A program made the position numbers and the translations under genes. The notes beneath the pieces were generated by a model that saw only the letters and a list, made by a program, of their open reading frames with translations, was not told where the DNA came from and made no database searches. From a virus: a stretch of DNA of 37,214 nucleotides. Location of the stretch: IMG/VR virus record IMGVR_UViG_3300031787_000383; one strand, given 5' to 3'. Shown here one piece after another: positions 5,540 through 23,363 of the stretch; position 1 is the first letter of the stretch; each line of letters begins with the position of its first letter.

Positions 5540-7066
5540 TTAAGCCCCCATCCAGCTCGTCGCGCCCGATGAGCGGTCAGAGTAGGCGCGGCGGGTGTTG
5601 GCGATGCGTGGCTCACGGCTGGCAACCGGATAGGCAAACGTGACGGCGATCGCGTCCGCCGCGTCGGGTGATGCTAGACCCCTGGCTTTCATATCTTTCT
5701 TGCTCTCCAAGAAGATTGTACCGCTCGAGTCTGGCTTGGTCTTGGGGCCGGTCAGGTCCGCTTTGAGCTGCCTGTCTGGCGCAATACTAGCCGTCTTTAG
5801 CCAGTCTCGCATTGCACCCCACAGCTCCGCGCGCTTGTTACCCCACATAATCTGGTTCTTGGCTTTCCAGCCAAAGTTTACCCCACGCACCTTATACCGC
5901 TGTTCAACCAGCCGGTCAAGTATTCCATACCCCAGCCCACCTTCGTCAATCACCGTCAACGTCGGCTTGTACTCCTCGATCGCGTCGATGACGTGCCCAA
6001 CGGTCGTCATCGTGTCATCACCCCGATACCGTTTGATTGCGATGATGTCTCGACCTTGCCTGACCGCAATGACTGTCGAGTCACCTCCTGACCTGGCTGG
6101 GTCAATCCCGATGACAATCGGTGCTGTCTCGTCTTTGTGTTTAGCGCGGCCAAATGCAGCGTCTACTAGGCTGGGGCCGATGAACTGGTCGTCACCTGCG
6201 CTCGGAAACTCTCCAAACACCTCGACCTTGGCCTGTATCGAGTCCTCGCCGTACTCCGCAATGATCTGCTCGTATATCTGCTTGTCGGTGCCCTCTACGT
6301 CGCGGGCGTCGATGTTCTCTGTTACCCAGAAGTCGCGCTTACTGTTGAAGCACTCGAAGAAGTAGCCTTGGTTGCGCCGGGGGTTGCTAAACGCGCACCA
6401 GAAGCGATGCGGCGTGTTTTCCGTAAAGAACCCCTGCGCCACGTCCCAAATCGAATCTGGAATACCAGACGCCTCATCAAAGATCAGCAGCACGCCGTCG
6501 CTGTTGTGCAGACCAGCGTAAGCGTCCGGGTTTTCTTCTGACCACAGACGCCCCTCAACCGACCAGAAGCGCGTGCCCTTCTTTAGATCGCGCTCGACAA
6601 TCTCAGCCAACCACTTGGCTGGCGTCACGCGCGTTGCGCTGATCTCGAACCAATGGCTGTTAATCATCATAGCCAGCCACTTGGTAATCTCAGACCAGGT
6701 GATCGACCGGAGCTGCGCCTCGCTGTTAGCCGACACAATCGTGGTGCTGCCGATTCGCGTGGACAGCATCCACAGTATCAGCCAAGACACTAGCGCCGAC
6801 TTACCAATCCCACGGCCAGAGGCCACCGCCAGCCGAAAGACGTTGTAGTCAACGCGCCCGCCGTTGTCTTTAATGTGCTGGGCGATCTGCCGCAAAATCT
6901 TGCGCTGCCATTTGCGCGGGCCTGTGTAGTGTTCTAGCGGCGTGCCCTTCTGGCCCCACGGAAACGCGAACAACACAAACGCTTCTGGGTCGTCTTTGAT
7001 GCGCGGCTGCCAAAGCCGCACCATCAAAGTCTGTTCGTCAGATGCGCTGTAGATTGGCTGCTGCAA
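5540..7066 (-). CDS. terL: Terminase large subunit (508 aa from TTG 7066; alternative ATG at 7024)
   Basis: Walker A-like VASGRGIGKSAL, a C-terminal nuclease-type region, and size and position. GGAG lies 9 nt upstream of the TTG. Confidence 0.9.
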   Translation of the reverse strand: MQQPIYSASDEQTLMVRLWQPRIKDDPEAFVLFAFPWGQKGTPLEHYTGPRKWQRKILRQIAQHIKDNGGRVDYNVFRLAVASGRGIGKSALVSWLILWMLSTRIGSTTIVSANSEAQLRSITWSEITKWLAMMINSHWFEISATRVTPAKWLAEIVERDLKKGTRFWSVEGRLWSEENPDAYAGLHNSDGVLLIFDEASGIPDSIWDVAQGFFTENTPHRFWCAFSNPRRNQGYFFECFNSKRDFWVTENIDARDVEGTDKQIYEQIIAEYGEDSIQAKVEVFGEFPSAGDDQFIGPSLVDAAFGRAKHKDETAPIVIGIDPARSGGDSTVIAVRQGRDIIAIKRYRGDDTMTTVGHVIDAIEEYKPTLTVIDEGGLGYGILDRLVEQRYKVRGVNFGWKAKNQIMWGNKRAELWGAMRDWLKTASIAPDRQLKADLTGPKTKPDSSGTIFLESKKDMKARGLASPDAADAIAVTFAYPVASREPRIANTRRAYSDRSSGATSWMGA

Positions 7067-7478
7067 GTGATGGCTCCAGTTTCTCGGTCGCCTGCACGTC
7101 GATGACGCGCTGCTCTGCCTGTTCTAGCGCGCTGATGACGCTGATCTGTTGCGCAACGTCAATTTGCACTTGCTGCTTAGCAACCCAATCGTGCCGGTGC
7201 TTTAGCACCTCAAGCGCCGCTTTGGTATCGCCTGCCAACGCCGCGCTCATCATAACAGCCGCTAGCTCTTTCTCAGCGTCAGCGCGCCCTTTCTGTTCTG
7301 CCATTTCGGCAATTGGGTCCATCTGACACAGACGCCGGAACTCGGTGGGCAACATTCCTGCCGCTAGCGCCAGCGCGTCGCCCTTTAGACCTAACTTGGC
7401 AGCGTCGTAGATGCGCTGCAGACGCGCTTCGGTAGCAACCAGCGTGCGCGCCGTGAGCGGAAGTGACTGGAAAGTCAT
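7038..7478 (-). CDS. terS: Putative terminase small subunit (146 aa)
   Basis: First gene of the leftward block, overlapping the terL start. Helical protein with an HTH-like N-terminus. Assignment is by position and layout only. Confidence 0.55.
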   Translation of the reverse strand: MTFQSLPLTARTLVATEARLQRIYDAAKLGLKGDALALAAGMLPTEFRRLCQMDPIAEMAEQKGRADAEKELAAVMMSAALAGDTKAALEVLKHRHDWVAKQQVQIDVAQQISVISALEQAEQRVIDVQATEKLEPSLAAANLQRI

Positions 7479-7510
7479 CTAGGTGGTGCAACAGATTGTG
7501 TGGTGCAGCA

Positions 7511-7539
7511 ATTATATATAAAAGAAAAATTTTTTGCAC
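7511..7539 (-). promoter_or_regulatory. Candidate sigma70-type leftward promoter for the terS block
   Basis: -10 TATAAT (7516-7511), 17-nt spacer, -35-like GTGCAA (7539-7534), with an A/T tract upstream. Confidence 0.4.
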
Positions 7540-7558
7540 TGATACAAATTGTGTGGCG
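7534..7558 (+). promoter_or_regulatory. 25-nt promoter-like box, copy A: TTGCACTGATACAAATTGTGTGGCG (TGn + TACAAA extended -10 type)
   Basis: Matches copy B (8140-8164) at 20/25 positions with identical spacing. Back-to-back with the leftward TATAAT promoter. Confidence 0.45.
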
Positions 7559-7815
7559 TGGACTGATAAATAAAAAAGTTTTTGTGAGGGGTCCGTTTTT
7601 GATCGGGCCAGCCGCCGGCCCTGGCCGGGGGCTATCAGCCGACCGGCTCCGATCGACGCAAGCTATCAGCTACCGGCCGCGCCAGCCCGCCAGGCGTGCG
7701 GTCAATGGGTCACATGGGTCATGGCCCAGCGGGTCGAAGGCGTGCGTCCAAACCGCATGCAAACCGGGTCAATGGGTCAAATGGGTCATGACCATTTGAA
7801 TTGATAAACGGTTTT

Positions 7816-7859
7816 GGGAAACGGGCGGGAAAGGGGCGCGGGGCTGGGTGAAACGGGGG
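7816..7859 (+). other. G-quadruplex-forming motif (7 runs of G3-G5 in 44 nt)
   Basis: GGGaaacGGGcGGGaaaGGGGcgcGGGGctGGGtgaaacGGGGG, read directly from the sequence. Confidence 0.6.
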
Positions 7860-7946
7860 TTATGGGTCATCTGGGTCACATGGGTACCCCACTTTTAGTC
7901 GCGCCAATGTTTTGCGCGTGCTCCCGCCAGCGCCGCCATACAGTGC

Positions 7947-7966
7947 TACTGTACGGATATACAGTA
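7947..7966. promoter_or_regulatory. LexA (SOS) box-like palindrome TACTGTACGGATATACAGTA
   Basis: Perfect CTGT-N8-ACAG core; 17/20 match to TACTG(TA)5CAGTA. It overlaps a possible leftward promoter (-35 CTGTCA, -10 TATATC). Confidence 0.4.
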
Positions 7967-8139
7967 TTTTTTTTATTTTGACAGTATCTAACAAAACAAT
8001 GACCCATAAGACCCATTCAGAGGGAAACACGCTCCGCGTAAGGCACCCACGCCAATACCCCGTTGGGGTTCCCATATTGACAGCGCGGCTATCTGCAACG
8101 CGTCTTGTCGCACGCGTCAATGGGTCATGCAAAAAGCGC

Positions 8140-8164
8140 TTGCAATGCTATAAATTATGTGGCA
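8140..8164 (+). promoter_or_regulatory. 25-nt promoter-like box, copy B: TTGCAATGCTATAAATTATGTGGCA; probable early rightward promoter (extended -10 TGcTATAAA)
   Basis: TGn + TATAAA at 8146-8154, about 55 nt upstream of the first early gene. Confidence 0.5.
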
Positions 8165-8177
8165 AAGTGTTGTTCAC

Positions 8178-8192
8178 GCGATCGCCGATCGC
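8178..8192 (+). promoter_or_regulatory. Early-operon stem-loop 1 (6-bp stem) followed by ATCAACC and GAGGAG
   Basis: gcgatc-gcc-gatcgc, then atcaacc GAGGAG and ATG at 8214. Confidence 0.5.
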
Positions 8193-8213
8193 ATCAACCG
8201 AGGAGCACACAAC

Positions 8214-8567
8214 ATGCAAACCGTTACCTTAAAACAGCATCCTGAGATTCTCCGCGTTATCCGCGCCGCCGATCCTACCTACCGCAAAACGAAGGCGTTT
8301 ATTTATACCCGCGAGAGTGTCACGCTACACGGCACGTATTGGGACGGCGGTTCGCGGTCTACCTATACAGCGGTAGAGCTGGCGACGGGCCGCAACAAAG
8401 GCGCGCCGCAATACGCGCCGCCTCAATTCGGCGGGCCGCGCCAAGCGCCTGAAGTGCAAATTCCGCCCGATGTTGTAATTGTCGAAACCGGTACGTTTTG
8501 CGGTAAGCCCGCGACGGCTACCGTGTATGTCAATCCCGCCAACATGGCGCGCCTGTTAACCGTTTAA
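8214..8567 (+). CDS. Early protein, unknown function (117 aa)
   Basis: ATG at 8214, 8 nt after GAGGAG. The longer ORF-track start (8157) lacks an SD and lies in the promoter box. Confidence 0.7.
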   Translation: MQTVTLKQHPEILRVIRAADPTYRKTKAFIYTRESVTLHGTYWDGGSRSTYTAVELATGRNKGAPQYAPPQFGGPRQAPEVQIPPDVVIVETGTFCGKPATATVYVNPANMARLLTV

Positions 8568-8574
8568 TCAACCC

Positions 8575-8592
8575 GCGCGCCTACGGGCGCGC
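8575..8592 (+). promoter_or_regulatory. Early-operon stem-loop 2 (7-bp stem, UACG tetraloop) followed by ATCAACT and GAGGAG
   Basis: gcgcgcc-tacg-ggcgcgc, then atcaact GAGGAG and ATG at 8614. No T-run follows the stem. Confidence 0.55.
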
Positions 8593-8613
8593 ATCAACTG
8601 AGGAGCAAATGTA

Positions 8614-9204
8614 ATGAAAATCACCATCGACCACAACATCGTCAAAGCCCTTTTGATCTGCGCCGCGAAACAAGATATTCGCTACTACCTAAAGGGCATA
8701 TGCGTCGACGCCCGCGCGAACGGCGACGTTGTCCTTGCCACTACCGACGGTCATCGTCTGCTAGCCTATCCCGTCGCCACTGATGCAATCGAAGCGCTCG
8801 CGCCCGGTCAGTACATCATCCCGCGCGAGGCGCTCGAGGCGGTCAAGCCCTGCAAAGCTGGCCGCCACATGCTACCGATCACTATCGAGATTGACACAGC
8901 AAAAGGGCTCGAAAACAAGATCACGGGCGCGACGTCAACCGTTACGCCCCTGATTGACGGTAAATTTCCCGATTGGCGGCGCGTGCTGCCGAAAACGGTA
9001 TCGGGCGAGCCCGCCCAGTATCAGGCCGAGTACCTTGGTGATTTTGGTCGCATCGCCGATTTGCTTGGCACTAAACAGCCGCACATACATTACAACGGCA
9101 GCGCAGCGGCGATCGTTGGCAATCTAGGCGCGGCGCTTGGCGTGCTTATGCCTATGCGCTCTGATGCTGAGTTCTCAGCCCTGCCCGCATGGGCGCTCGC
9201 CTGA
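8614..9204 (+). CDS. Truncated DNA polymerase III beta sliding-clamp (DnaN) homologue, 196 aa (domain II plus a rump of domain III)
   Basis: DIRYYLKGI...LATTDGHRLL...IIPREAL...LIDGKFPDWRRVLPK...LGVLMPMR parallels E. coli DnaN DVRYYLNGM...VATDGHRLAV...IVPRKGV...LVDGRFPDYRRVLPK...YVVMPMRL (DnaN sequence recalled from memory). Confidence 0.8.
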   Translation: MKITIDHNIVKALLICAAKQDIRYYLKGICVDARANGDVVLATTDGHRLLAYPVATDAIEALAPGQYIIPREALEAVKPCKAGRHMLPITIEIDTAKGLENKITGATSTVTPLIDGKFPDWRRVLPKTVSGEPAQYQAEYLGDFGRIADLLGTKQPHIHYNGSAAAIVGNLGAALGVLMPMRSDAEFSALPAWALA

Positions 9205-9213
9205 TCAATCCCA

Positions 9214-9231
9214 CGGGCGCGCAAGCGCCCG
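9214..9231 (+). promoter_or_regulatory. Early-operon stem-loop 3 (7-bp stem, GCAA tetraloop) followed by CATCAACC and GGAG
   Basis: cgggcgc-gcaa-gcgcccg, then catcaaccc ttGGAG and ATG at 9256. Confidence 0.55.
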
Positions 9232-9255
9232 CATCAACCCTTGGAGACTCTCACC

Positions 9256-9690
9256 ATGACACGCACGCAAATCCTTCACGCGCTCGACGCCTTTCTGGAA
9301 TCTCGCCCCGGTTTCGATCCGGCCAATTATCAAGGCGCGCCGCAAGCGTATCGCGCCGATTATCGCCGCGCCTACCAGCACCTGCAAGACGGGCGCGCGC
9401 TCTTGCGCGCCGTGAGCTGGCGCGACGGTATCGACGCGGACACACTCGCACGCGCTAAGCATCATCGAATCGACTTCAGGCCCAGCGCGACGGGTAACAC
9501 CGTCGAGGTCGACTATTGCACGGGGCAGTATTACCCGGTCGAATTCCGCGCCGCTGTCTGTCAGACTCTCTCGAACGCGCTGTGGCACTATTTCCGCGAG
9601 AGCTGCGGCTGCGTTACTGCCGACGCTATCCGCACGATGGCACGGCGTGAGCTGGGCCGCTCAATCGCCCGTCGCTGGTTTGGGGCCTGA
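9256..9690 (+). CDS. Early protein, unknown function (144 aa)
   Basis: ATG at 9256, 9 nt after GGAG (internal start of ORF 9241..9690). Confidence 0.7.
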   Translation: MTRTQILHALDAFLESRPGFDPANYQGAPQAYRADYRRAYQHLQDGRALLRAVSWRDGIDADTLARAKHHRIDFRPSATGNTVEVDYCTGQYYPVEFRAAVCQTLSNALWHYFRESCGCVTADAIRTMARRELGRSIARRWFGA

Positions 9691-10019: not shown

Positions 10020-10100
10020 TCGCGGCCGCACTGGTTGCCCTCGCGGCCGCAATCCTTGCTATTGTCTTACGCCTATAGCCCGCTCCATGAACCCTTACCG

Positions 10101-10122
10101 GCCCGCTTACGCGGGCTTTTTT
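10101..10122 (+). terminator. Rho-independent terminator ending the early operon
   Basis: GCCCGC-TTAC-GCGGGC followed by TTTTTTATTT. The T-run overlaps the TAA of the convergent 221-aa gene. Confidence 0.8.
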
Positions 10123-10786
10123 ATTTCACCCGGTAGTCGTGAAACACGGATCCGCTCGCCGGATCGCCGACCCGGCACGGGCGGACCCAAACCCGACCCG
10201 CCGGCAGGGTCCGCCAATGCCCTCTGCGCTCATGGGCGCGCGGGCTCGCATGCGACCCGCCCGCCGGCCCGCGATCAGCCCGCACGCGTGCGGTAATCTC
10301 TACGGTCCGCCATGTGTAAGCGGGCGCCTTCCCGCGCGCCTTTTGGCGCCGTGCGGTAAAGGTCCGCGCAACCTCGGCCCGATACCCCTCGATCGCCTTC
10401 GACCCGTCCAAGCGCGTTAGCAGGCAATCCAAAATCGCAATGGCGATTCGATCAAGGTCCGTCACCCGTCGATTGTCGCGCGTATACACGCGCAACCCGC
10501 CCGTCTCGGGGTCCGCCATAATCGTTAGCGGCGCGAAATCGTCTCGCGCCTCGCGCGTGAACCTAAACCCGGCGATTGTGACCGACTCATTGCCCGCCAT
10601 CGCGCGGACGGCAAACCGGATTCCCTCGACCACGCCAACGATTGCGATATCGTCGAATGGTAAATGCAGCAATCGCTCGGGCGCCACGTCTAACATAATC
10701 TCGCCCTCGATCTCGCCCAGGTCGAACCAAACCGACTCCTCGGGCGTAGGGACCATGCGCGACAATTCGCGCACTAGGGGCGTCAT
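10121..10786 (-). CDS. Hypothetical protein (221 aa) with Arg/His-rich C-terminal module (SPRAHERRGHWRTLPAGRVWVRPCRVG)
   Basis: ORF track. ATGA overlap with the primase-helicase stop. Confidence 0.75.
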   Translation of the reverse strand: MTPLVRELSRMVPTPEESVWFDLGEIEGEIMLDVAPERLLHLPFDDIAIVGVVEGIRFAVRAMAGNESVTIAGFRFTREARDDFAPLTIMADPETGGLRVYTRDNRRVTDLDRIAIAILDCLLTRLDGSKAIEGYRAEVARTFTARRQKARGKAPAYTWRTVEITARVRADRGPAGGSHASPRAHERRGHWRTLPAGRVWVRPCRVGDPASGSVFHDYRVK

Positions 10787-13167
10787 TTGACCGCTCGCAA
10801 GCCGACAGACCCGCTCGCGCTATCAAGCATCCGCTTAATCTCCGCGCGATTGCCTCCTACACTCTCGAGCGTATCGGGCGAAGCGTACAAATGAACCTTG
10901 CTACCGTTCGGGGTCGCCTTGACCCGGCCTAGATCAATCCAACCCGCCTCGCGGAGCGCGTGAAAGAGCGCGTGTACGCTTGCTTTCGACCCGATCGGCA
11001 TGAGAGGCTGCAGACGGTCAACCAAAGCCTGCCAAGGGGCTTTAATCGCGCCCAATGCGAATTCCCCGCGCTTGTCTCGCATCATCTCGACCAGCGCCGA
11101 TTCGACCAGCGACAGACCCGCCGATAGCATGATGGCCTTGGCCTCAGTGAACGGGGGTGCGCCACCAGGCGCGAATGCGCTCACGTCCCTCGAGCGTAAC
11201 CAAGCCGCGACCGCTGCCCGCCCGCCGGCCTTAAACCAGTCCCAAATCGCTGCGCCCTCGGCCTTTGACAGCGGGCGCGCGTCCGACCAGAGCACGTACC
11301 AGCGGCGATCGTCCGACGGGAGCGTAATCGCCATGCGCTCATTACTGAACGCGACCACGCTCAACCGGTTCAAAGCGTCAAACGGGTGCAAGCCCTTGCG
11401 GTTGACCGGTATCAATTCCGGCGGCGCAGCGAGCAAGGGCTTAAGCCGATTCTCGAGCGCGCGCCGATCGGACGCATCAGCCTGGCGTAGTTCGTTAATG
11501 ACCAACACTTCCGCCATTAACGAATATCCCCATTGCGAGTTCAATTCTTCGTTTTTGATGAGCGCGACATTCTCGCGCGACGGCCCGCCGACCGCGTACA
11601 GAAACGGCTCGAAGGTTGTATCTTTCCCGATACCAGGCGCGCCGCCCAGCAGCACGCCGTGGTTGATCTTCTGTTGCGGGTTTTGGACCTTGTAGGCCAT
11701 CCAATCAAACAGGTGCTCGCGCTCGGACGCCTCAGGCAACAGCCGCTCGACCAGATCAAGCCACGGGCGAACGTCGGCCTCGCCCTCGACGATTGGCCTC
11801 GCGTCACGCCAGAGGTTCGCGTAGACGTCCCCGGCGCGTGCGACCAGCACTGACTCACCCGCAGCATAGGTCACGCCCTGCAGAACCCGCGCGCCCATCG
11901 CCTGACGGTTTTCGTCAAAACTGATCGACGCCTCGACGCGGCGCTTCTTACCATTAGTCCCGGCATGCACCGACCAGCAGGTGATATGCCGATAAATCGC
12001 GTTGAAATTACTGCGCGAATATTGTTTACGCTCGACCAGATCAAAATAACCGTCATCGGCGTGAAGGTACGCGAACCGCTCAAACCAACCGTCACGCTCA
12101 ACCCGCCCCGCCTCGCGACGCTCGACCTCGGCCACGACCGCAGCCGCAGCGTCGGGGAACGCCTCGGTCGGCGTGATCTTTGACATCGCCTCGGCCATGC
12201 GGGCGGCTAGCAGCTCATCACGCAGCCCCGGCGTGTGTTTCGGCCCGCCCTGATCAGCGACCCACTGCAAAAACCGCGCGCTGTCCCAGTCCTCGCAATG
12301 ACCGTGATAGCAGCAGTAGGCGCGCGTTGATGCGAGGTAACGGCCTTCAGGGTTGCCGTCCGAGTGTTCGCTCGAATTAGGGCATACGACACCCGCCCAG
12401 CCCTCGCCGTTGGGGCGCTCGAGCACAAGCCCCTGCGCGCTCAACCACGCCAACACATCGTCGGACCCATCATCGCTCAACCGCACCGGGCGCAGACCGT
12501 TAGTGTCATCCGGTCCCGGCTCAACGCCCAGCGCGGCGCAGAGGTCGGGTAACTTGTACACGCGCTCAGGGTGAAACTCGACCAGACGGGCCTTGAAACC
12601 ACCCTTGTCGGGTTTCAGGTTGACGCTATCTGGCAAGCGAAAGTTTCTGACCGGATTGACCGCGCCAGGGTCCGAGTAGCCCGCAGCGGCGATCGCGCGA
12701 ATGGCCGCCGAATATGCGCCTTTGGTCGGTTGATTGTCAGGGTCGAAGGCATAGCCCCATTGATAGCACCCTGCGCTGGTTTCCATGACCCACGTAGGCG
12801 GCACGGGCGAGGTCTTGGGGGCTTTGTCAGTCCCGACGTCATCGAGCACCATGCAGACCACGTAATCGCACGCCGCAGCCGATGCTGTGACCTTGCCATC
12901 GACAAACCGGTCGATGACAAAACAACCCGTGTTGCCATACCAAGCCGCGCCCTCGGCCTGCAGATTTGCCCGTTCAGGCAGAAACGCGGGCCAGGTAGCC
13001 TTAAGCGCCCCATCGGCGTGATATTGCAGCTCGCCCGCCGCGTTACGCTTGGGCTTTTGCCGCACAAACAACACGGTCTCGCCCTCGGGCGCAAGGGATA
13101 CGATATAATCGACAAAGTTCATGTTCTCTCCGGTTTTAGCGCCCGCCTTGCCCGCGGGCGTTTTCAT
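10783..13167 (-). CDS. Bifunctional AEP primase-polymerase / PriCT-like zinc module / SF3 (D5- or P4-alpha-like) helicase (794 aa; alternative start 13122)
   Basis: MVLDDVG and SAGCYQWGY AEP-type motifs; CPNSSEHSD...CCYHGHC; Walker A GGAPGIGKDT; Walker B VLVINE. ATGA overlap with the polymerase stop. Confidence 0.88.
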   Translation of the reverse strand: MKTPAGKAGAKTGENMNFVDYIVSLAPEGETVLFVRQKPKRNAAGELQYHADGALKATWPAFLPERANLQAEGAAWYGNTGCFVIDRFVDGKVTASAAACDYVVCMVLDDVGTDKAPKTSPVPPTWVMETSAGCYQWGYAFDPDNQPTKGAYSAAIRAIAAAGYSDPGAVNPVRNFRLPDSVNLKPDKGGFKARLVEFHPERVYKLPDLCAALGVEPGPDDTNGLRPVRLSDDGSDDVLAWLSAQGLVLERPNGEGWAGVVCPNSSEHSDGNPEGRYLASTRAYCCYHGHCEDWDSARFLQWVADQGGPKHTPGLRDELLAARMAEAMSKITPTEAFPDAAAAVVAEVERREAGRVERDGWFERFAYLHADDGYFDLVERKQYSRSNFNAIYRHITCWSVHAGTNGKKRRVEASISFDENRQAMGARVLQGVTYAAGESVLVARAGDVYANLWRDARPIVEGEADVRPWLDLVERLLPEASEREHLFDWMAYKVQNPQQKINHGVLLGGAPGIGKDTTFEPFLYAVGGPSRENVALIKNEELNSQWGYSLMAEVLVINELRQADASDRRALENRLKPLLAAPPELIPVNRKGLHPFDALNRLSVVAFSNERMAITLPSDDRRWYVLWSDARPLSKAEGAAIWDWFKAGGRAAVAAWLRSRDVSAFAPGGAPPFTEAKAIMLSAGLSLVESALVEMMRDKRGEFALGAIKAPWQALVDRLQPLMPIGSKASVHALFHALREAGWIDLGRVKATPNGSKVHLYASPDTLESVGGNRAEIKRMLDSASGSVGLRAVK

Positions 13168-15113
13168 TTGCCATACACGCTCATCACCTTGGCCTCGACG
13201 GCCAGCGGTAATCCTGTGGCCCACGCTGGTGGGGTCGTCATCATACGCTCAAGCTCTACCTTCGCCGCGTCCGGGTCGGCTGTCTCGACAACGATTTCAT
13301 CGTGGACATGCAGCACAACATCCGGCACCTGCCGCAGCGCCGCCCGTAGGATGTCATGGGCGCTCGCCTGCGTCACGTTCTCGCACGCAAGCCCAGACCA
13401 CAAGCGCGCACGCGGCCATTCGGTCGCGTCAGCCGCAGGCTTCCACGCGGCCTTGGCGTAGGTCAGATGCTCGCCTTCAAACTTAGCGTAGGGGTAGCAG
13501 AGCACGCGCCCGCTCGGCAGCATGTACCAGAGATGCTGTCCGTCATAGACGTAGGTCACGCGGCCCGCGCTGAACTCATGCCCCCGGTGACGCATCGCGG
13601 ACATGTAGGCGTTCTCAAGCGCCTGCCAGAACGCCACCGCCCACGGGTTCGCACGACGCCAGGCGTCAACGATCCGCCGCGCTTGCGGCTCATCAAAGCG
13701 CACGCCGTAGACGCGGCCCATCGCGCTAAACGCGCCGATCGACCCGCCGAACCCGAGCGCTAACTCCTGCACCTTACCGACCTGGCGCTGATCGTCGGTG
13801 ACTGCCTCATACGCCACGCCGTAGGTCGCAGCGGCGTTGACCTTGTACGGGTCAAGCCGCTCGCGGAAGATGTCGAGCTTTTTCTCGCCTGCTGGGCTAT
13901 TCGCCAGCCACGGGTTGACGCGGCCCTCGATAGCCGACCAGTCGGCCACAACAAACTGCTTACCCGGCGCGGGGACCAACGCCGGGCGCAGCATCGACTT
14001 CAGGACGTCGGTGACTCGCGGTCCGTAGGCTGGAACGACGCTGTGGCCTCGTACGAGGGCGTGTCTAAGATCAGCGGGCTTTTTGGCGGCTTTCCGAGGG
14101 AAGTTGTGGACCTGTGCGCCATATGAGCTAGCTCGACCTGTCGCCGCGCCTCCAGCAAATACAAACGCACCTCGGATTCTCTGATCTTCTGCGTCAGCCA
14201 ACGATGCGAGGCGGCTAAACTTCGCAGTCGAGCTTGCCCATAAGTCGTCGGCGCATTGGATAACTTCGGAGACGACGCTCGGTACTTCATCAGGATTCTC
14301 CATCGCAAGCAGGTTTGCCCGCACTGTTTTGTCGATGCTGTCCTTCGGCTCGCCGCCTTTAAATGACTTAGCGAGCTTCCGGGCCTCGGGGCCCAGTCGA
14401 TCTAAGACCCACGCACGCATCTTAGGCGAGCGCACCGACGTGACCATGCCCTCGGTCAACTCCACGACGCGCGCCTCGATTTCCACGCGCTCGGCCTCGC
14501 TGTATCGCATCGCCGCGTGACACAGATCAACATCGACCAGCACGCCCCGGTCGTTGATTCGTTCGTTGACATGGTAATCGGCAAGCTCATCGGCTGACAG
14601 GTCGCGCATGCCCTTGCTGACCGCTCGCATGGCGCGGACGTCTTGACGGCAATACTCGAACAAATCCTGCAAGTCCTGCTCGGTATGTTTAAACGGCGGC
14701 ACACAGCACTTACGGACCAGTTGCGCGCCACGATGGTCTTTCTTCATGCTCGCGCCCGCAAACCGCCCGACGTCTTCGAGCGAACCAGGCGCGCAGTTAG
14801 ACCGGGCTTGTGCTGCGGTGCAATAGAACTGCTCCAGCGCAGGCTCCGGCAGGTCAAGGTCGGGGCAGAGGACATACCAGAGAATCAGTCGGTCAAAGGC
14901 GGCGTTATGGACTCGTATTTGGCCCCCGTTCGCAAAGTGATCGCTGACGCGCTGCGGAAACGGCTGGCCTGGCATCCATATATCTACTTCTTCATCGTCA
15001 AACGCATACGCCAGACACAATATTTCCGTTGATGCGTCTCTTGCATAGTTATATGGCCCTCGCGCCCTAAGATCGCAGCGGCTGCGCGTTTCGCTGTCAA
15101 GCCAAAGAATCAT
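13164..15113 (-). CDS. Family A DNA polymerase with 3'-5' exonuclease domain (649 aa)
   Basis: Exo I LWLDSETRS; motif A DWSAIEGRV; motif B RQVGKVQELALGFGGS; motif C HVHDEIVVE. The ATG overlaps the HNH stop (ATGA). Confidence 0.92.
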   Translation of the reverse strand: MILWLDSETRSRCDLRARGPYNYARDASTEILCLAYAFDDEEVDIWMPGQPFPQRVSDHFANGGQIRVHNAAFDRLILWYVLCPDLDLPEPALEQFYCTAAQARSNCAPGSLEDVGRFAGASMKKDHRGAQLVRKCCVPPFKHTEQDLQDLFEYCRQDVRAMRAVSKGMRDLSADELADYHVNERINDRGVLVDVDLCHAAMRYSEAERVEIEARVVELTEGMVTSVRSPKMRAWVLDRLGPEARKLAKSFKGGEPKDSIDKTVRANLLAMENPDEVPSVVSEVIQCADDLWASSTAKFSRLASLADAEDQRIRGAFVFAGGAATGRASSYGAQVHNFPRKAAKKPADLRHALVRGHSVVPAYGPRVTDVLKSMLRPALVPAPGKQFVVADWSAIEGRVNPWLANSPAGEKKLDIFRERLDPYKVNAAATYGVAYEAVTDDQRQVGKVQELALGFGGSIGAFSAMGRVYGVRFDEPQARRIVDAWRRANPWAVAFWQALENAYMSAMRHRGHEFSAGRVTYVYDGQHLWYMLPSGRVLCYPYAKFEGEHLTYAKAAWKPAADATEWPRARLWSGLACENVTQASAHDILRAALRQVPDVVLHVHDEIVVETADPDAAKVELERMMTTPPAWATGLPLAVEAKVMSVYGK

Positions 15114-15610
15114 GCGCACCACCACACATAGCCGTACGCGGGGCGATTGCGCTTCATCGCGCCGCTGATGCCGCCTGTTTGTTTTCCTCGCATGGCAATC
15201 TCCGCGTCAATTTGACTCTCAAAAGCCACTATTTCTTTAGTGTGCAGATTGATGCCCATGATGCGTTTTTCTGGCTTGACGCGACGGCCTGCGGCTAGCG
15301 CATGACGTACGTTTTCTTTGCGGGTTACCCACTCTAAATTTTCAGCTCGATTGTCGGATCGCAAAAAATTTTTGTGGTTAACTTCACGACATCCGTGCGG
15401 GTTTTCGAGAAACGATTGCGCGACAAGCTGATGAATGGTCTTTACCGATCGAGTGTGTTTGCCACCTGAATATAAATGCACGCAGACGTACTCATGGATC
15501 ATCTTATTAGGCTTCAATATGCGGTTTAGTTGCGTCGACCGAACGCGCCCTTGATCGCTCACTTCATATCGCCCTTCATAGCCAGGGATAGCTTTCCAAA
15601 CTTCTTGCAT
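15110..15610 (-). CDS. Free-standing HNH homing endonuclease (NUMOD4-like N-terminus + HNH)
   Basis: WKAIPGYEGRYEVSDQGRVRS...; EVNHKNFLRSDNRAENLEWVTRKEN. The gene looks less GC-rich than its neighbours by eye. Confidence 0.88.
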   Translation of the reverse strand: MQEVWKAIPGYEGRYEVSDQGRVRSTQLNRILKPNKMIHEYVCVHLYSGGKHTRSVKTIHQLVAQSFLENPHGCREVNHKNFLRSDNRAENLEWVTRKENVRHALAAGRRVKPEKRIMGINLHTKEIVAFESQIDAEIAMRGKQTGGISGAMKRNRPAYGYVWWCA

Positions 15611-17823: not shown

Positions 17824-17871
17824 TTGACTAACGGAAACCGCATGGTATACCATCGCTTTGAAGTTTGCAAC
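17824..17871. promoter_or_regulatory. Divergent promoter/operator region centred on the 12-bp palindrome ATGGTATACCAT (17842-17853)
   Basis: Rightward promoter: TTGACT (17824-17829), 16 nt, TATACC. Leftward promoter: TTGCAA (17870-17865), 15 nt, TATACC. Both -10 elements fall within the palindrome. Confidence 0.4.
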
Positions 17872-18354
17872 GGCATAAACTTTAAAGCATGCGGGAGATC
17901 AAAAATTTTAGAGATCGTGCCTCTTTCACTTAAACAAGCGCAGGGCTTTGTGGCGCAACATCATCGGCATAACAAGCCGCCAATAGGGCATAAGTTTAGC
18001 CTTGGCGTGATGGTTGACGGCGCGCTTGTGGGTGTAGCTGTGGCCGGGCGTCCAGTAGCGCGCGCGTTGGATGACGGGCGCACGTTAGAAGTCACTCGAA
18101 CTTGCACCGACGGCACGCCCAACGCTAATTCTAAGTTGTACGGCGCAGTCACTCGGGCAGCTAAAGCGATGGGGTACAAGCGGTTGGTGACGTACACGCA
18201 AGCAGATGAGACTGGCGCTTCGTTGCGTGCGTCTGGCTGGAAAGCTCAAGCGGCGCTTGCACCCCGTGCCGGTTGGTCGTGCGCGTCAAGGCCGCGCAAT
18301 GATATTGGATCGTCAAACATCGCGCGCGTGCGCTGGGAGATTTACTTTGCTTGA
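17842..18354 (+). CDS. GNAT-like (XF1762-type) putative acetyltransferase; start uncertain (ATG 17842, GTG 17917, or ATT 17905 with a well-spaced GGGAG)
   Basis: LEIVPLSLKQAQGFVAQHHRHNKPPIGHKFSLGV...GVAVAGRPVARALDDGRTLEVTRTCTDG..NANSKLYGA matches the remembered family pattern. Confidence 0.65.
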   Translation: MVYHRFEVCNGINFKACGRSKILEIVPLSLKQAQGFVAQHHRHNKPPIGHKFSLGVMVDGALVGVAVAGRPVARALDDGRTLEVTRTCTDGTPNANSKLYGAVTRAAKAMGYKRLVTYTQADETGASLRASGWKAQAALAPRAGWSCASRPRNDIGSSNIARVRWEIYFA

Positions 18355-19131: not shown

Positions 19132-19333
19132 TGCCTGCGGCGAACGATGGAGTCTTGGAACGGCAAGCACCTGCAAGTGCCCAGACCTTGTGACTTGGGA
19201 TGCCTCCGCATTCAAAAAGCCGTGGCAAGGGCTGAACTTCGACGAGCTTCCAGACCATGAGTTTGGGAACCGAGACTTCATTCTCGGCGCACGCTGGGCA
19301 GAAGCAAAGCTGAAAGAGAAAAATGCGCCTTAG
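19112..19333 (+). CDS. Hypothetical Cys-containing protein (73 aa) ending AEAKLKEKNAP
   Basis: AAGGAG lies 7 nt upstream of the ATG at 19112. Confidence 0.6.
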   Translation: MFYGQCNACGERWSLGTASTCKCPDLVTWDASAFKKPWQGLNFDELPDHEFGNRDFILGARWAEAKLKEKNAP

Positions 19334-20612
19334 ACCTTACCAAAACGAGGCCGCTGACTTCTTGTTTGCCAACGACCGCGCGATGATCCTCGCGTGGGTC
19401 GGTGCAGGCAAGACAGCGACTGCGCTCACGGCCATGAAAGCGATGCTGGACGAGCGCCACGCCAAGCGTTTTCTCGTGCTCGCACCGCTGCGAGTCGCGC
19501 AGTCGGTCTGGCCGGCGGAAGCGGCGCTCTGGGCGCCAGGTCTTGAGATCGCCGTCGCCGTCGGCTCGCCCGCCCAACGAGCGCGGGCACTCGCGTCCAC
19601 CGCGCCAGTAGTCGTCACCAACTACGACAACCTGCTATGGCTGTCTGAGCAGGCGCTCAACTTTGATGCGGTTGTGTTCGACGAGCTGACGCGGCTCAAG
19701 AACCCCAGCGGTAAACGGTTCAAGGCGCTCTCGACCGTCATCGAGCCCATGCAAATCCGGTGGGGGCTGACAGGCAGCTTCACGTCTAACGGTCTGGAAG
19801 ATGTGTTCGGTCAGTGCAAGATCGTTGACCAGCGCATGCTGGGCCGCAGCAAAGGCGCGTTTCTGCAGCAATACTTCCACTGCGTCAACCGCGACTTTGG
19901 TGATTACGTCGCGCTGCCTAACGCGCTGGAAGCGGTCATGCAGCGCATCAAACCGTGGACGTATGTACTGGAGCCTGGCGAGTACCGCGACCGCCTGCCG
20001 CCGCTCCACACGGTGCCGATCGAGCTGACCATGCCGATGGACGCCTACCGCGAGATGAAGCGCGAGATGGCACTGATCTACCCCAACGCCGAGGTCATCG
20101 CCGCCAACGCCGCAGCGGTCACGAGCAAGTTGCAGCAGCTCGCTGCTGGGTTTGTCTACGACACGAACCGACAAACTGTCTGGCTGTCAGACCACAAGCT
20201 CGATGCGGTCGCGGATTTGCACGCCGAGAACCAGCGTGCGCCGATGCTCGTCTGGTATCAGTTCAAGGCGGAGCTTGCCGGGCTACAGTCGCGCTTCCCG
20301 CGCTTGCAGACGCTCGCCAACGACGACTCGATCGCGCGGTGGAACGCGGGGCAGATTGAGATGCTGGCGGTTCATCCGGCCTCTGCCGGGCATGGGCTCA
20401 ACCTGCAAGGGCAGTCGCGCATGGTGTGGATGTCGCTCCCGTGGTCGCTGGAGCTCTACGAGCAGGCGGTCGGGCGCTTGCATCGCGGCGGCCAGCGCCA
20501 TGACGTGCTGAATTATGTGCTCACGACCGAGGGCACGGTCGATGAAACGATCTGGAAGGCTTTACATGAGAAACGAGAGGTATCTGATATGGCACTAGAG
20601 GCGCTCAAATGA
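19323..20612 (+). CDS. SNF2-family (SF2) helicase/ATPase (429 aa)
   Basis: LRPYQ; GAGKT Walker A; DELT box; C-terminal helicase motifs (GLNLQ, QAVGRLHRGGQ). Confidence 0.9.
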   Translation: MRLRPYQNEAADFLFANDRAMILAWVGAGKTATALTAMKAMLDERHAKRFLVLAPLRVAQSVWPAEAALWAPGLEIAVAVGSPAQRARALASTAPVVVTNYDNLLWLSEQALNFDAVVFDELTRLKNPSGKRFKALSTVIEPMQIRWGLTGSFTSNGLEDVFGQCKIVDQRMLGRSKGAFLQQYFHCVNRDFGDYVALPNALEAVMQRIKPWTYVLEPGEYRDRLPPLHTVPIELTMPMDAYREMKREMALIYPNAEVIAANAAAVTSKLQQLAAGFVYDTNRQTVWLSDHKLDAVADLHAENQRAPMLVWYQFKAELAGLQSRFPRLQTLANDDSIARWNAGQIEMLAVHPASAGHGLNLQGQSRMVWMSLPWSLELYEQAVGRLHRGGQRHDVLNYVLTTEGTVDETIWKALHEKREVSDMALEALK

Positions 20613-20763: not shown

Positions 20764-20961
20764 ATGAATCTTAGCTGGCGGGATTTGCAGAGGAAACTTA
20801 ATCAACTAACGGAGAGTGAACTATGGCAACTGATCGAAGCGGAACTGGCAGGCAAGAAACGTGTGTCTTTGATCGAGCGGATGCACATGCGGGCGGCAGC
20901 ATTACGCACTACCCGGGAGAGGCTGGATCTCTTGAAACGCGCGACGCGCTCTACGCCGTAG
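20764..20961 (+). CDS. Small helical protein (65 aa)
   Basis: ORF track. The ATG lies 2 nt after the previous stop. Confidence 0.6.
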   Translation: MNLSWRDLQRKLNQLTESELWQLIEAELAGKKRVSLIERMHMRAAALRTTRERLDLLKRATRSTP

Positions 20962-20975
20962 GCGTCGCGACTGAC

Positions 20976-21092
20976 GTGCAGAAGACGTGGCGCCGGTATG
21001 GCTGGGTGCCGCCGTCAGAGCTGCCGGAGTACCATGAGAAGTGGGCGCGCGCCCAACAACCAACACGCATATCGGAGGTGGGACGTGGTTGA
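20976..21092 (+). CDS. Possible small protein (38 aa, GTG start): QKTWRRYGWVPPSELPEYHEKWARAQQ...
   Basis: Fills the gap between neighbouring genes, and its stop overlaps the next start. No clear SD. Confidence 0.3.
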   Translation: MQKTWRRYGWVPPSELPEYHEKWARAQQPTRISEVGRG

Positions 21093-21267
21093 TTACAGCG
21101 AAGGTTACCTGAACCTGAAGCGCATGGTAGACGAGATTTGGCAGGCCATTCTCGACAACGACATGACTCGCGCACGAGACATCTGCGCCGCAGCGGCTGT
21201 TGAAGCACGGCTTCTACGTCATCAGATCGGCTTGCAAAGCGAGAACAGGCATGACAACCAAGGATAA
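21085..21267 (+). CDS. Small protein (60 aa, GTG start)
   Basis: GGAGG lies 6 nt upstream of the GTG at 21085 (internal start of ORF 20998..21267). Confidence 0.5.
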   Translation: MVDYSEGYLNLKRMVDEIWQAILDNDMTRARDICAAAAVEARLLRHQIGLQSENRHDNQG

Positions 21268-21577
21268 GGTCTGGCGGTATATGAACGGCCACAAACGCGC
21301 CGTGACCGCGCAACAGCTTGCAGACTATTTCATACAGTCAAAGTCAACGATCATCAAGGTGCTCAATGAACTCAAGAACCAAGGCAAGCTCGAAGTCATC
21401 ATGGCTACAGAGCCCGGTAACGGACGCCGCCCCTACGCCTGGCGGCTCAAACGATCTGGGGGCGTGGCCGTTCCCGAACTGGACGACACGTCGGCCCACC
21501 CACCAGCTCCACGACGCGCCACCTACGACCGACCGATGCTCAACTCCTACCCGCACATACGCGGATATGACGACTGA
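21251..21577 (+). CDS. Winged-helix DNA-binding protein (108 aa)
   Basis: VTAQQLADYFIQSKSTIIKVLNELKNQGKLEVI is an HTH + wing pattern (internal ATG of ORF 21200..21577). Confidence 0.6.
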   Translation: MTTKDKVWRYMNGHKRAVTAQQLADYFIQSKSTIIKVLNELKNQGKLEVIMATEPGNGRRPYAWRLKRSGGVAVPELDDTSAHPPAPRRATYDRPMLNSYPHIRGYDD

Positions 21578-21592
21578 ACTGGGGGACGCAAA

Positions 21593-21913
21593 ATGGTAGA
21601 CATGGTGAACCAGCCGCCGCACTACACGCGAGGCGGCGTGGAGTGCATCGACGCGCTGGCGTCAGCGACCGCAGGGCTGGAAGGACTTGACGCCGTCTGT
21701 ACCGCCAACGCCATCAAGTACCTGTGGCGCTGGAAGTACAAGAACGGCGTCGAGGATTTGCGCAAAGCGCAGTGGTATATCGCTAAGCTGATTGAGACAT
21801 CTGTAACGCCAGAGCCCGACCTTCTTCGACGCGCCTCGCCCAACCGCGACCAAACGTGGACCACGTGGGAAGTGTCTGTAGATAAACCAGACGACGGTCT
21901 TGGAAGCTGTTGA
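21593..21913 (+). CDS. DUF3310-like protein (106 aa); its last ~38 codons run antisense through the endolysin 3' end
   Basis: NQPPHYTRGGVECIDAL...NAIKYLWRWKYKNGVEDLRKAQWYIAKLIE. GGGGGA lies 7 nt upstream of the ATG. Confidence 0.78.
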   Translation: MVDMVNQPPHYTRGGVECIDALASATAGLEGLDAVCTANAIKYLWRWKYKNGVEDLRKAQWYIAKLIETSVTPEPDLLRRASPNRDQTWTTWEVSVDKPDDGLGSC

Positions 21914-22301
21914 TGATGTCTGTTGCCGGCATGGCTGCGATCGCCCGCAACGTCAGCGGGCCGATCGCGCCGTCCGGTGTCGTGCCGATCGTCTCTTGTA
22001 AGAGCTTGGCCGCGCGGCCTGGGCCGCTGTTGATTGCGGTATCAAAGACAACGTAGTCCACGCCCGCAGGCAGCTCGTCGCCTTTCACTTTGTCCCAATA
22101 CTTTTCTTTGTACAGCGGCGAGACGTCAGCAGGCGACAGCGCCCGCATCTCGGCCTCGGTCACAGGCCGACCGCACCACTTCTCCCACGTCGCCTTGGTG
22201 CAGCCAAGGTTAGTCATGCCGCCGGGGTCATCCTTATGGTTTACAAAACCGCCCTCGTGATGCAACACCGCTGCTAACGCCGCGCCCCAGTTCTCTTTCA
22301 T
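21783..22301 (-). CDS. Endolysin, GH108-type muramidase with C-terminal peptidoglycan-binding domain (172 aa)
   Basis: LHHEGGFVNHKDDPGGMTNLGCT N-terminal motif. ATGA overlap with the upstream holin-like gene. Confidence 0.85.
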   Translation of the reverse strand: MKENWGAALAAVLHHEGGFVNHKDDPGGMTNLGCTKATWEKWCGRPVTEAEMRALSPADVSPLYKEKYWDKVKGDELPAGVDYVVFDTAINSGPGRAAKLLQETIGTTPDGAIGPLTLRAIAAMPATDIINSFQDRRLVYLQTLPTWSTFGRGWARRVEEGRALALQMSQSA

Positions 22302-22783
22302 TTCTTGCTCTCGATGGTGTCTTGTTTAGCCTTGGACCCGGCGCTCGAGCCAAAGAAGAAGTTCAAGATCGTTGCAACCACGGTCGCAAGAATGAACCCC
22401 AGCACCGTGTCGGCAAAGCGCACGTTGTCAGTTGGAATCTTAACCATCGTGATCAAGAAAATGTAACCCGCAGCGACGATCGACCAGAAGGTCGCCAGCA
22501 CATAGACGAACGATTTGCTGATGTTGTTGCCGTTGATCAGCGCGGCGATCTGCATCGCGCGGGCGTCAGCGGTGTTCTTGTTCGCCTGCTCGACCATGAA
22601 CTCTTCGTGTTGCATCGCCCGCTCGCGCAGGCGTGTGATGTCCTCGGCGCTCATGTCGGGCTTAAGCTCTACGCCAGTCTTTTCTTGGACGTAGTCAAGC
22701 CCCTTGTCCACGACCGCTTGCGCGACCTTGGGCAAGTTGTTCTGGATGAGGGTAGATACGATACCGGCAACGATGGGCAGCAT
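22298..22783 (-). CDS. Putative holin (161 aa; helical N-terminus plus 2-3 C-terminal TM segments, a layout like the GTA-type 3TM holins)
   Basis: Hydrophobic stretches FVYVLATFWSIVAAGYIFLITMV and VLGFILATVVATILNFFFG. Lies immediately upstream of the endolysin. Confidence 0.5.
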   Translation of the reverse strand: MLPIVAGIVSTLIQNNLPKVAQAVVDKGLDYVQEKTGVELKPDMSAEDITRLRERAMQHEEFMVEQANKNTADARAMQIAALINGNNISKSFVYVLATFWSIVAAGYIFLITMVKIPTDNVRFADTVLGFILATVVATILNFFFGSSAGSKAKQDTIESKK

Positions 22784-22857
22784 TATCGGCTTATCTCCGC
22801 TAAGAAAACCATGAGCGCGCCTACTAGGATCATTACGATAGTTATCAGGTAGTTCAT
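22783..22857 (-). CDS. Possible 24-aa single-TM micro-protein: MNYLITIVMILVGALMVFLAEISR
   Basis: Hand-translated. ATGA overlap upstream and TAATG overlap downstream, so it exactly bridges two genes. Confidence 0.3.
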   Translation of the reverse strand: MNYLITIVMILVGALMVFLAEISR

Positions 22858-23363
22858 TCCGGCCACCGATCCACCATGAACTTGATGATGTGGAAGAGGA
22901 TCAACCCACCCGTAGCGACCACAACCGCAATGAAGATGGCGTCAGAACTGTTCTTGATGAACTTCTTACGCCGGCGCATTTGATCGTAAATCATTTTCTC
23001 GCGCTGCTCTTTGATGCGCCGCCGCATTTGTATGAACTCAAGGTAGCCCTCGCGGCCAAGATGCTGTAGCGCCCCGTAATGGAACCAGTCGTACAGCGAC
23101 TTTTCCATCTCTTTAATCTTGACCTGGGCGGCGTAGGCGTCAAACGCCTCCGCTGTGGCGGATTTGGTGAAGACTAGCTTTTTGAAGAGTGGCGGCTTCT
23201 TGTTTGCCTCAATGTTCATCCACTCTTGCAGATCAGAGACGGCAGACGCCCACTTGCCGAGCTGACCAAAGACATCTTCGGCCTCTCGCCCTAGCTCTAC
23301 CGCCTTCTTCAGTCCGTTGAAGACGGCAGTCGCAGTCGCCAACAGACTGATTGGGTCTAGCAT
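22854..23363 (-). CDS. C-terminally membrane-anchored protein (169 aa), unknown function
   Basis: ORF track (ATG is the second codon). TM segment AIFIAVVVATGGLILFHII near the C-terminus. Confidence 0.65.
   Translation of the reverse strand: MLDPISLLATATAVFNGLKKAVELGREAEDVFGQLGKWASAVSDLQEWMNIEANKKPPLFKKLVFTKSATAEAFDAYAAQVKIKEMEKSLYDWFHYGALQHLGREGYLEFIQMRRRIKEQREKMIYDQMRRRKKFIKNSSDAIFIAVVVATGGLILFHIIKFMVDRWPE

Follow-up and report, generated by a model that had tools for sequence, protein, structure and literature searches.

A phage mini beta-clamp predicted to keep the clamp-binding pocket of DnaN without its ring interface

The IMG/VR virus record IMGVR_UViG_3300031787_000383 (37,214 nucleotides, analyzed here as a whole and referred to as the window) carries on its plus strand, at positions 8614..9204, a gene for a 196-amino-acid (aa) protein, here called the mini-clamp, which is by its sequence a clear homologue of DnaN, the bacterial beta clamp. 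Alignments and a structure model indicate that this protein consists of DnaN domain II followed by the second half of domain III, with domain I and E. coli residues ~253-312 deleted. The E. coli dimer interface, which we take to be formed by domain I (R103) and domain III (I272, L273 and I305), falls within the deleted parts. As both halves of this interface are lost and the elements of the clamp-binding pocket are kept, the mini-clamp would represent a non-ring module built around the pocket. We tentatively propose that it acts as a soluble receptor for clamp-binding motifs, which captures or redirects host clients of the clamp; we give this proposal somewhat less than an even chance of being right.

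DnaN homology, domain architecture and the clamp-binding pocket

The open reading frame (ORF) is a real gene with a strong ribosome-binding site:

8614..9204, plus strand: mini-clamp coding sequence, ATG start, 196 aa plus stop codon
8600..8605, plus strand: Shine-Dalgarno sequence GAGGAG, read from the sequence, 8 nt 5' of the ATG

The identical protein is encoded by at least 21 metagenomic contigs (~35-40 kb each) with the same gene order; the search that returned these copies gave 376 matches to the mini-clamp. The gene is under purifying selection, with pairwise ratios of nonsynonymous to synonymous substitutions (dN/dS) of 0.06-0.14 among close homologues. A pseudogene or decaying fragment was ruled out by these dN/dS values together with the size of the family.

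A sequence-only reading of the window had proposed a relationship to DnaN and a start near the equivalent of E. coli residue 130, and both were borne out. The only domain found in a Pfam scan (at E<=10) was PF02767, the DnaN central domain (E=1.4e-10, residues 8-120), and the NCBIfam DnaN model TIGR00663 scored 49.6 bits against a cut-off of 137.65, with the match confined to profile positions 136-252. Mini-clamp residues 9-129 were aligned with E. coli beta residues 138-252 by phmmer against PDB sequences, and hhalign, used with an alignment of 107 family members, placed residue 2 on E. coli residue 127 with a probability of 99.6%. Identity to DnaN over domain II was 31% for the window protein and 26-36% among the homologues compared. 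Tracking of the host DnaN was considered and rejected, as enterobacterial members (30-32% identity to E. coli DnaN) were no closer to it than others. The segments of the protein were assigned as follows:

8614..8991, plus strand: residues 1-126, one whole clamp domain with FPDWRRVLP at its end, the counterpart of DnaN domain II (E. coli ~126-249), as judged by hhalign, phmmer and two beta-alpha-beta-beta-beta motifs in the model
8992..9159, plus strand: residues 127-182, with KTVSGEP as a short linker followed by a single beta-alpha-beta-beta-beta motif, the counterpart of the second half of DnaN domain III (E. coli ~313-365), as judged by hmmsearch, hhalign, BLASTP and the model
9160..9201, plus strand: family-specific C-terminal tail SDAEFSALPAWALA with an L-P-x-W motif (P191 and W193; LPAW), no DnaN counterpart, modelled at a predicted local distance difference test score (pLDDT) of 71-79

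The C-terminal part of the protein had been read as one helix and a short strand, giving 1.3 domains in all and leaving out most of the domain III contribution to the pocket (N320, Y323 and V344). Three sequence methods instead align residues ~130-182 with the second half of domain III. When the family profile was searched against PDB clamps with hmmsearch, positions 125-181 matched S. maltophilia DnaN 320-373 and positions 145-181 matched P. aeruginosa DnaN 330-366. When the C-terminal third was offered E. coli residues 253-366, hhalign chose residues 319-365 (E=8.9e-5), as compared to only E=0.31 for the first half of domain III. BLASTP aligned the homologue of phage EP23 with E. coli 309-366 and that of Salmonella phage Seszw_1 with E. 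coli 316-366. Moreover, in an AlphaFold2 model (51 sequences; pLDDT 87.5, predicted TM-score (pTM) 0.84) this region forms the last of three beta-alpha-beta-beta-beta motifs, which together correspond to 1.5 clamp domains. Foldseek searches with the model returned beta clamps as the best matches (TM-score ~0.65 on the query), among them 1JQL and the R103C/I305C mutant clamp 3PWE, and all structural matches were clamps.

No counterpart of E. coli residues 1-125 or ~253-312 was found in the mini-clamp by hhalign and hmmsearch alignments. With one Pfam domain and 1.5 modelled domains, the protein falls outside full-length DnaN (PF00712, PF02767 and PF02768; ~366 aa), and the alignments leave it neither side of the DnaN-type head-to-tail interface, i.e., domain I and the first half of domain III. 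These absences support the earlier view that the mini-clamp should be unable to form a normal dimeric ring.

The elements of the pocket that the mini-clamp appears to retain are listed here with their E. coli equivalents:

8680..8691, plus strand: R23-Y24-Y25-L26, equivalent to R152-L155, pocket wall (conservation 0.98, 0.70, 0.97 and 0.97)
8743..8760, plus strand: T44-D45-G46-H47-R48-L49, equivalent to T172-L177, pocket subsite 1
8965..8991, plus strand: F118-P126 (FPDWRRVLP), equivalent to F241-P249, covering P242, R246 and V247 of the pocket
9019..9033, plus strand: Y136-Q137-A138-E139-Y140, equivalent to F319-N320-V-S-Y323, pocket subsite 2 (family consensus F-N-x-x-Y)
9094..9108, plus strand: N161-G162-S163-A164-A165, equivalent to D342-S346, loop with V344 and S346
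9142..9159, plus strand: V177-L178-M179-P180-M181-R182, equivalent to V360-R365, C-terminal pocket strand

Four of these motifs had been assigned to the pocket by the sequence-only reading, and they map as it claimed (R152-L155, T172-L177, F241-P249, and L178-R182 on V361-R365). In domain III, Q137 and Y140 align with N320 and Y323, positions at which the family consensus is N and Y, and the surrounding family motif SGE.AQFN..YL corresponds to E. coli EIGFNVSYVL. All 22 pocket-equivalent positions align in the mini-clamp, and the E. coli residues that we take to be the known pocket residues all fall in the segments that it keeps. Among 107 diverse members, the mean frequency of the top residue was 0.73 at the 22 pocket-equivalent positions as compared to 0.40 elsewhere (P < 1e-5, permutation test), and 11 of the 22 were among the 33 most conserved positions of the family (those with at least the 30th-ranked value). 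Strongly conserved positions specific to the family were G131, N161-G162, P191 and W193, the N-G of the 161-162 loop being nearly invariant (0.96 and 0.98). Overall, these alignments suggest that the hydrophobic pocket for clamp-binding motifs, located between domains II and III, has been kept.

Family, C-terminal tail and genomic context

The mini-clamp belongs to a large and phage-specific family. It matches phrog_3007 along its full length (E=8.8e-37, with residues 1-185 aligned to profile positions 1-188 of 190) and has the features of PHROG 3007 members, i.e., a length of ~170-220 aa with domain II and half of domain III, ending in MPxR. The family hidden Markov model (HMM) matches phage homologues over their full length, and the same architecture was seen in the members from EP23, Seszw_1, Klebsiella phage ZCKP8 and Vibrio phage 1.115.B. 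A search of GenBank phage proteins gave 91 records with the first query and at least 217 with a divergent member as query; recorded hosts include Salmonella, Vibrio, Escherichia, Klebsiella, Acinetobacter, Burkholderia, Pseudomonas, Rhizobium and Ralstonia. A library of representatives at 50% identity contained 1518 proteins matching at E<1e-10, the best 150 of which were almost all 170-260 aa long, and pairwise identity between family members is only 25-45%. As only one real match was found in 72,556 plasmid records, a plasmid family was ruled out.

Among the best 150 representatives, the only fusions were to DUF3560, a domain of mobile elements, in one lineage; none were to a polymerase. A search of the papers on DUF3560 yielded nothing informative. 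The sublineage of P0242 (781 aa), P0208 and P0246 carries a mini-clamp with the conserved extension ARAHFMPRRP...QAFPCDP, and in P0242 the fusion runs on into DUF3560 and a long C-terminal region; proteins of this type may be multi-domain proteins of an integrative element.

The sequence-only reading knew of no characterized phage protein of this type. As a statement about characterized members this holds, since a literature search found no functional study of any family member; as a statement about the family it does not, since PHROG 3007 is annotated and its members were noted in 2011. The usual GenBank label is "DNA polymerase III beta subunit", and Bcep781 gp15 is labelled "DNA Pol III b subunit fragment". 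Short phage homologues of the polymerase III beta subunit had already been noted by Kazlauskas & Venclovas 2011 (PMC3201878). The family also carries the label "RusA-like Holliday junction resolvase" in PHROGs (phrog_3007 and phrog_12598) and in many RefSeq phage records. Neither a Pfam RusA domain nor a RusA fold was found, with PF02767 the only Pfam match and clamps the only structural ones, and this label is probably a propagated misannotation.

Beyond the DnaN-like part, a hydrophobic-P-x-W motif is located 3-13 residues after MPxR in 75 of the 107 diverse members (at 6-13 residues in 74 of these), with conservation of 0.89 for P191 and 0.83 for W193; the window protein belongs to this subgroup. 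Members without the tail end at the MPxR equivalent or one residue later, about where DnaN ends, i.e., with MPMRL (EP23), MPLRA (Acinetobacter phage 4316, Ab4316), MQVRL (Vibrio 1.115.B), MPMLL (Seszw_1) and MPMRI (ZCKP8). Two C-terminal alanines (AA) were found in 41 of the 107 diverse mini-clamps (about 38-42%), as compared to 3.1% of background phage ORFs (P = 2e-33), and often come after 10-20 disordered residues; the window protein has ALA at its end, i.e., LA and not AA. The AA ends resemble a C-terminal degron of the ssrA/ClpX type and would fit a short-lived, dosage-controlled effector, which is only a hint. A P-x-W-A-x-x-x-P-L-A pattern (e.g., PPAWATGLPLA) is found near the C-termini of the family A DNA polymerases (PolA) of the window phage (13164-13240), EP23, BcepC6B and Ab4316; the likeness of its P-x-W-A core to the mini-clamp tail LPAWALA is probably a coincidence.

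The window represents a podophage genome of ~37 kb with P22-type portal, coat and ejection proteins, a terminase and an endolysin. The operon that the sequence-only reading took to be early is only a short plus-strand one (8157/8214-10019), flanked by divergent terminase genes and a convergent replication operon, and the mini-clamp is the second of its three genes. The neighbouring features are:

8214..8567, plus strand: upstream operon gene, 117 aa (136 aa if started at 8157), no known family matched
9256..9690, plus strand: downstream operon gene, 144 aa, no known family matched, variable among relatives
10100..10117, plus strand: terminator-like hairpin and T-run at the end of the plus-strand operon, where the convergent replication operon meets it
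10783-13224, replication operon: DUF5906 primase-helicase
13164..15125, minus strand: PolA (Pfam PF00476, PHROG 17), candidate partner of the mini-clamp
8574..8598, plus strand: GC-rich hairpin followed by the CGCATCAAC motif, directly 5' of the mini-clamp ribosome-binding site (repeat families D3 and D6)

The replication operon also encodes an HNH endonuclease, a nucleotidyltransferase-like protein and a DUF2800 nuclease; neither a clamp loader nor a full-length DnaN was recognized among the window proteins. Across 69 related viral contigs the place of the mini-clamp, between the terminase and the primase and PolA, was kept and the two small neighbours were rarely conserved, the upstream gene being present in only 2 of the 69 loci, which makes it context and not a conserved partner. 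PolA was located 3.5-5.5 kb downstream of the mini-clamp in 35 related loci.

No sigma-70-like site was found upstream of the plus-strand operon. All three of its genes carry CGCATCAAC followed by GGAG, ~15 nt before the ATG (8190-8220, 8574-8620 and 9214-9256), and in two of the three a GC-rich hairpin lies directly upstream of CGCATCAAC. A pattern search with the extended CGCATCAAC pattern gave 3 matches as compared to 0.5 expected; the element may be a signal for translation or for RNA processing. The 680 bp that separate the divergent terminase genes from the plus-strand operon contain, at 7690-8130, no fewer than eight copies of ATGGGTCA, with pairs near 7704/7713, 7771/7780 and 7861/7870, a single copy at 8119 and an inverted pair at 7999-8017. 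The arrangement resembles an iteron or operator array, which might serve as a replication origin or as the binding site of a regulator. Elsewhere in the window, the last gene of the replication operon (10121-10786, minus strand, 221 aa) had a weak precomputed Pfam match to an AcrVA2-like family and gave no match in our Pfam, PHROG and NCBIfam scans, a NUMOD4/HNH homing-type endonuclease gene (15110-15610, minus strand) abuts the 5' end of the PolA gene, and a gene for a Mom-like DNA modification protein (17842-18351, plus strand) is located next to that for a SNF2-type helicase (19323-20609).

Candidate ligands and functions

Eleven mini-clamp lineages were examined for the presence of a polymerase. 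PolA is encoded in seven of these (the window, vB_SBP9, EP23, BcepC6B, Ab4316, Anchaing and Bcep781). Neither annotation nor a PolA HMM run on six-frame translations revealed a polymerase gene in the remaining four (Vibrio 1.115.B, Salmonella Seszw_1, Acinetobacter ZC3 and Klebsiella ZCKP8), the mini-clamps of which are true family members with the same architecture. Regular-expression scans found no canonical clamp-binding motif in six PolAs or in an alignment of 38 PolAs from the lineage of the window, and no conserved motif of this kind in the window proteins or at the N- and C-termini of proteins in the eleven genomes. BcepC6B gp34 (32539-32898), a 125-aa hypothetical protein encoded in the replication operon upstream of the PolA gene, has QMPLDL at its N-terminus and QMELL at its C-terminus, a single case that may be due to chance. 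No phage gene was found to co-occur with the mini-clamp in all lineages.

Under the receptor proposal, the mini-clamp would be a monomer-sized, non-ring fragment of beta with its pocket available for QL[SD]LF-type motifs. In the infected cell its ligands would be host proteins whose usual docking site is the beta ring, with Pol III alpha, epsilon and delta, Hda, MutS/MutL, Pol II/IV/V, Pol I and ligase as candidate clients, and these clients would be either competed off host beta or brought to the phage replication machinery. In the window phage, which encodes PolA and a primase-helicase but no recognized clamp loader, the most plausible outcome would be that host clamp-dependent transactions are diverted or disabled. 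As mini-clamps are present in phages without a polymerase, the ligand cannot in general be a phage polymerase, and as the phage proteins scanned contain no canonical clamp-binding motif, host clients would be the simplest ligands. We also counted in favor of a receptor the conservation of the pocket, the purifying selection on the family, its size and near-restriction to phages, the DUF3560 fusion, the AA ends and the placement of some members in accessory islands. Such islands, on the opposite strand within the structural module, hold the mini-clamp genes of the polymerase-less siphoviruses Seszw_1 (6655-8523) and ZCKP8 (20946-23243); both include a ParB-like gene, and that of Seszw_1 also an anti-restriction gene. 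What the analysis shows is the homology, architecture, pocket conservation, purifying selection and distribution of the mini-clamp; that it binds peptides and is monomeric, which ligands it has and what it does physiologically are inferred. A decoy that titrates proteins with clamp-binding motifs had been the first of three options in the sequence-only reading; it stays viable and is strengthened by the retention of the whole pocket, binding being the part that is still presumed.

Several points weigh against the receptor proposal. A general decoy for alpha or delta would also harm the four polymerase-less lineages, which need host Pol III; as phages that depend on host Pol III carry the mini-clamp, its effect would have to be selective, or would be one of recruitment. 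Basic residues on the DNA-facing helices (K11, K19, R71, K78 and K81) are invariant or nearly so in close relatives, and a pure peptide decoy would need none. The gene directly follows that of PolA in BcepC6B and Ab4316, as a replisome subunit might. Conservation of the pocket could partly reflect fold stability, as these residues are conserved in DnaN generally, and the conserved P-x-W tail might fill the pocket in cis.

In a broader form, the receptor proposal would make the mini-clamps a widespread class of effectors, in which a free-standing pocket captures host motifs and rewires or shuts down the host clamp network, the N-G loop and the P-x-W tail set selectivity and, in many members, an AA degron sets lifetime. 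We regard this extension as possible, if rather doubtful.

An accessory or processivity subunit of the phage PolA, which would hold the polymerase on DNA by way of a non-canonical contact and, like herpesvirus UL42, neither encircle the DNA nor need a loader, would account for the seven lineages with PolA, for the gene order of BcepC6B and Ab4316, and for the location of the gene within the replication operon of vB_SBP9. The fixed place of the gene near the primase and PolA in the lineage of the window, where the small neighbours vary, the lack of a recognized clamp loader or full-length DnaN in the window, and the conserved basic helix residues point in the same direction, as does the presence of PolA within 10 kb in 17 of 25 related contigs with enough flanking DNA (the other 8 have other replication or recombination genes there instead). 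On the other hand, the polymerase-less lineages and the absence of a clamp-binding motif in six PolAs weaken this option, which the sequence-only reading had also raised, and leave it unlikely in our view. Moreover, the mini-clamp genes of EP23, Bcep781, Seszw_1 and ZCKP8 are located in the structural module, far from replication genes, and the isoelectric point (pI) of the mini-clamp is 6.96 (family median 6.3; E. coli beta 5.25), unlike that of basic non-ring processivity factors. Neither of two features of a UL42-like factor was therefore found, i.e., a basic DNA-binding surface or high pI, and constant association with a polymerase of its own. The BcepC6B annotation matches gp32 (polymerase) and gp30 (endonuclease) to BPP-1 Bbp42 and Bbp43 and gives no BPP-1 match for gp31, the mini-clamp; these annotation notes alone hint that this type of PolA can occur without a mini-clamp.

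A recruiting adaptor, whose pocket holds a host client (the Pol III core, Pol I or ligase) and whose other surface, possibly the tail, binds the phage helicase-primase, would explain the presence of the mini-clamp both in phages with PolA and in polymerase-less phages with their own helicase and primase. In keeping with such a role, there is beside the intact pocket another conserved part of the surface, made up of the P-x-W tail and the invariant N-G loop. The tail is absent from EP23, Ab4316, the Vibrio phage, Seszw_1 and ZCKP8, though, and there is no phage gene that co-occurs in all lineages, and we consider such an adaptor improbable.

Less probable still is a true sliding clamp made from more subunits, in which the ring consists of four copies, or an arc of three domains arises when two copies pair through their half-domains. 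Three motifs are exactly a quarter of a twelve-motif ring, the mildly acidic to neutral pI is nearer to that of ring clamps than to that of basic non-ring factors, and the orphan half-domain should expose an edge that is normally packed on its partner half. Conversely, the canonical interface segments are absent, no clamp loader was recognized in the window, pairing of half-domains would flip one subunit, which is without precedent, and the monomer is already modelled with confidence. Finally, a poison subunit, which would dimerize with host beta and so break the ring, the remaining option of the sequence-only reading, is suggested by the DnaN homology and made very improbable by the deletion of both halves of the head-to-tail interface.

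Significance and comparison with known systems

The beta-clamp pocket is a hub for at least ten bacterial replication and repair proteins and an antibiotic target. Hundreds of cultured phages of E. coli, Salmonella, Klebsiella, Acinetobacter, Burkholderia and Vibrio carry the mini-clamp family, and several of these host-phage pairs are tractable, so that the question of its function can easily be tested. Should the mini-clamp bind clamp-binding motifs, it would show how phages interfere with, or borrow, parts of the host replisome, and it would be a minimal scaffold on which to screen for pocket ligands. In addition, our analysis corrects the RusA-like label, a widespread and probable misannotation, and maps the domains of the family more precisely.

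Compared to bacterial DnaN (P0A988; 1MMI and 2POL), the mini-clamp is alike in fold and sequence in domain II and the second half of domain III and has the same pocket-lining motifs, including RYYL, TDGHRL, FPDxRRV.P, FN..Y and MPxR. It differs in its length (196 aa as compared to 366 aa), in the loss of domain I, of residues ~253-312 and with them of the dimer interface, in its additional P-x-W tail, and in being encoded by a phage without a recognized clamp loader. The short phage homologues of the polymerase III beta subunit (Bcep781 gp15, BcepC6B gp31 and EP23 p08) are of the same family, length and architecture; as judged from the alignments, what is new for the PHROG 3007 family is that its third domain is represented by the second half only.

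Monomeric beta binds delta more tightly than the ring does. The complex of monomeric E. coli beta I272A/L273A with the delta wrench (1JQJ/1JQL) resembles the situation proposed here in that a non-ring beta with an exposed pocket binds a clamp-binding element, and by analogy it may serve as a working model for a pocket-only protein that traps a host client. I272A/L273A beta is an engineered full-length protein, whereas the mini-clamp is a natural truncation, and the domain III loop that delta also contacts falls in the segment deleted from the mini-clamp.

The processivity factors UL42 of herpes simplex virus and UL44 of cytomegalovirus likewise have a clamp fold, do without ring closure or a loader, and belong to viruses with their own polymerase. 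They have two full domains, contact DNA through a basic face and bind their own polymerase at its C-terminus, whereas the mini-clamp has a pI of ~7, is present in polymerase-less phages, and has no polymerase motif that we could find for it.

Phage proteins that target the host clamp act in the same network of clamp and motifs. Staphylococcus phage inhibitors of DnaN target the host clamp. A further phage protein that targets the host clamp is MuC of phage Mu (PMC12867686). These proteins carry a motif and bind the host ring, whereas the mini-clamp, as we propose, would do the reverse and offer a pocket to host motifs. If the effector interpretation is true, the mini-clamps would mirror the phage proteins known to bind the host ring, and would constitute a widespread, so far unrecognized class.

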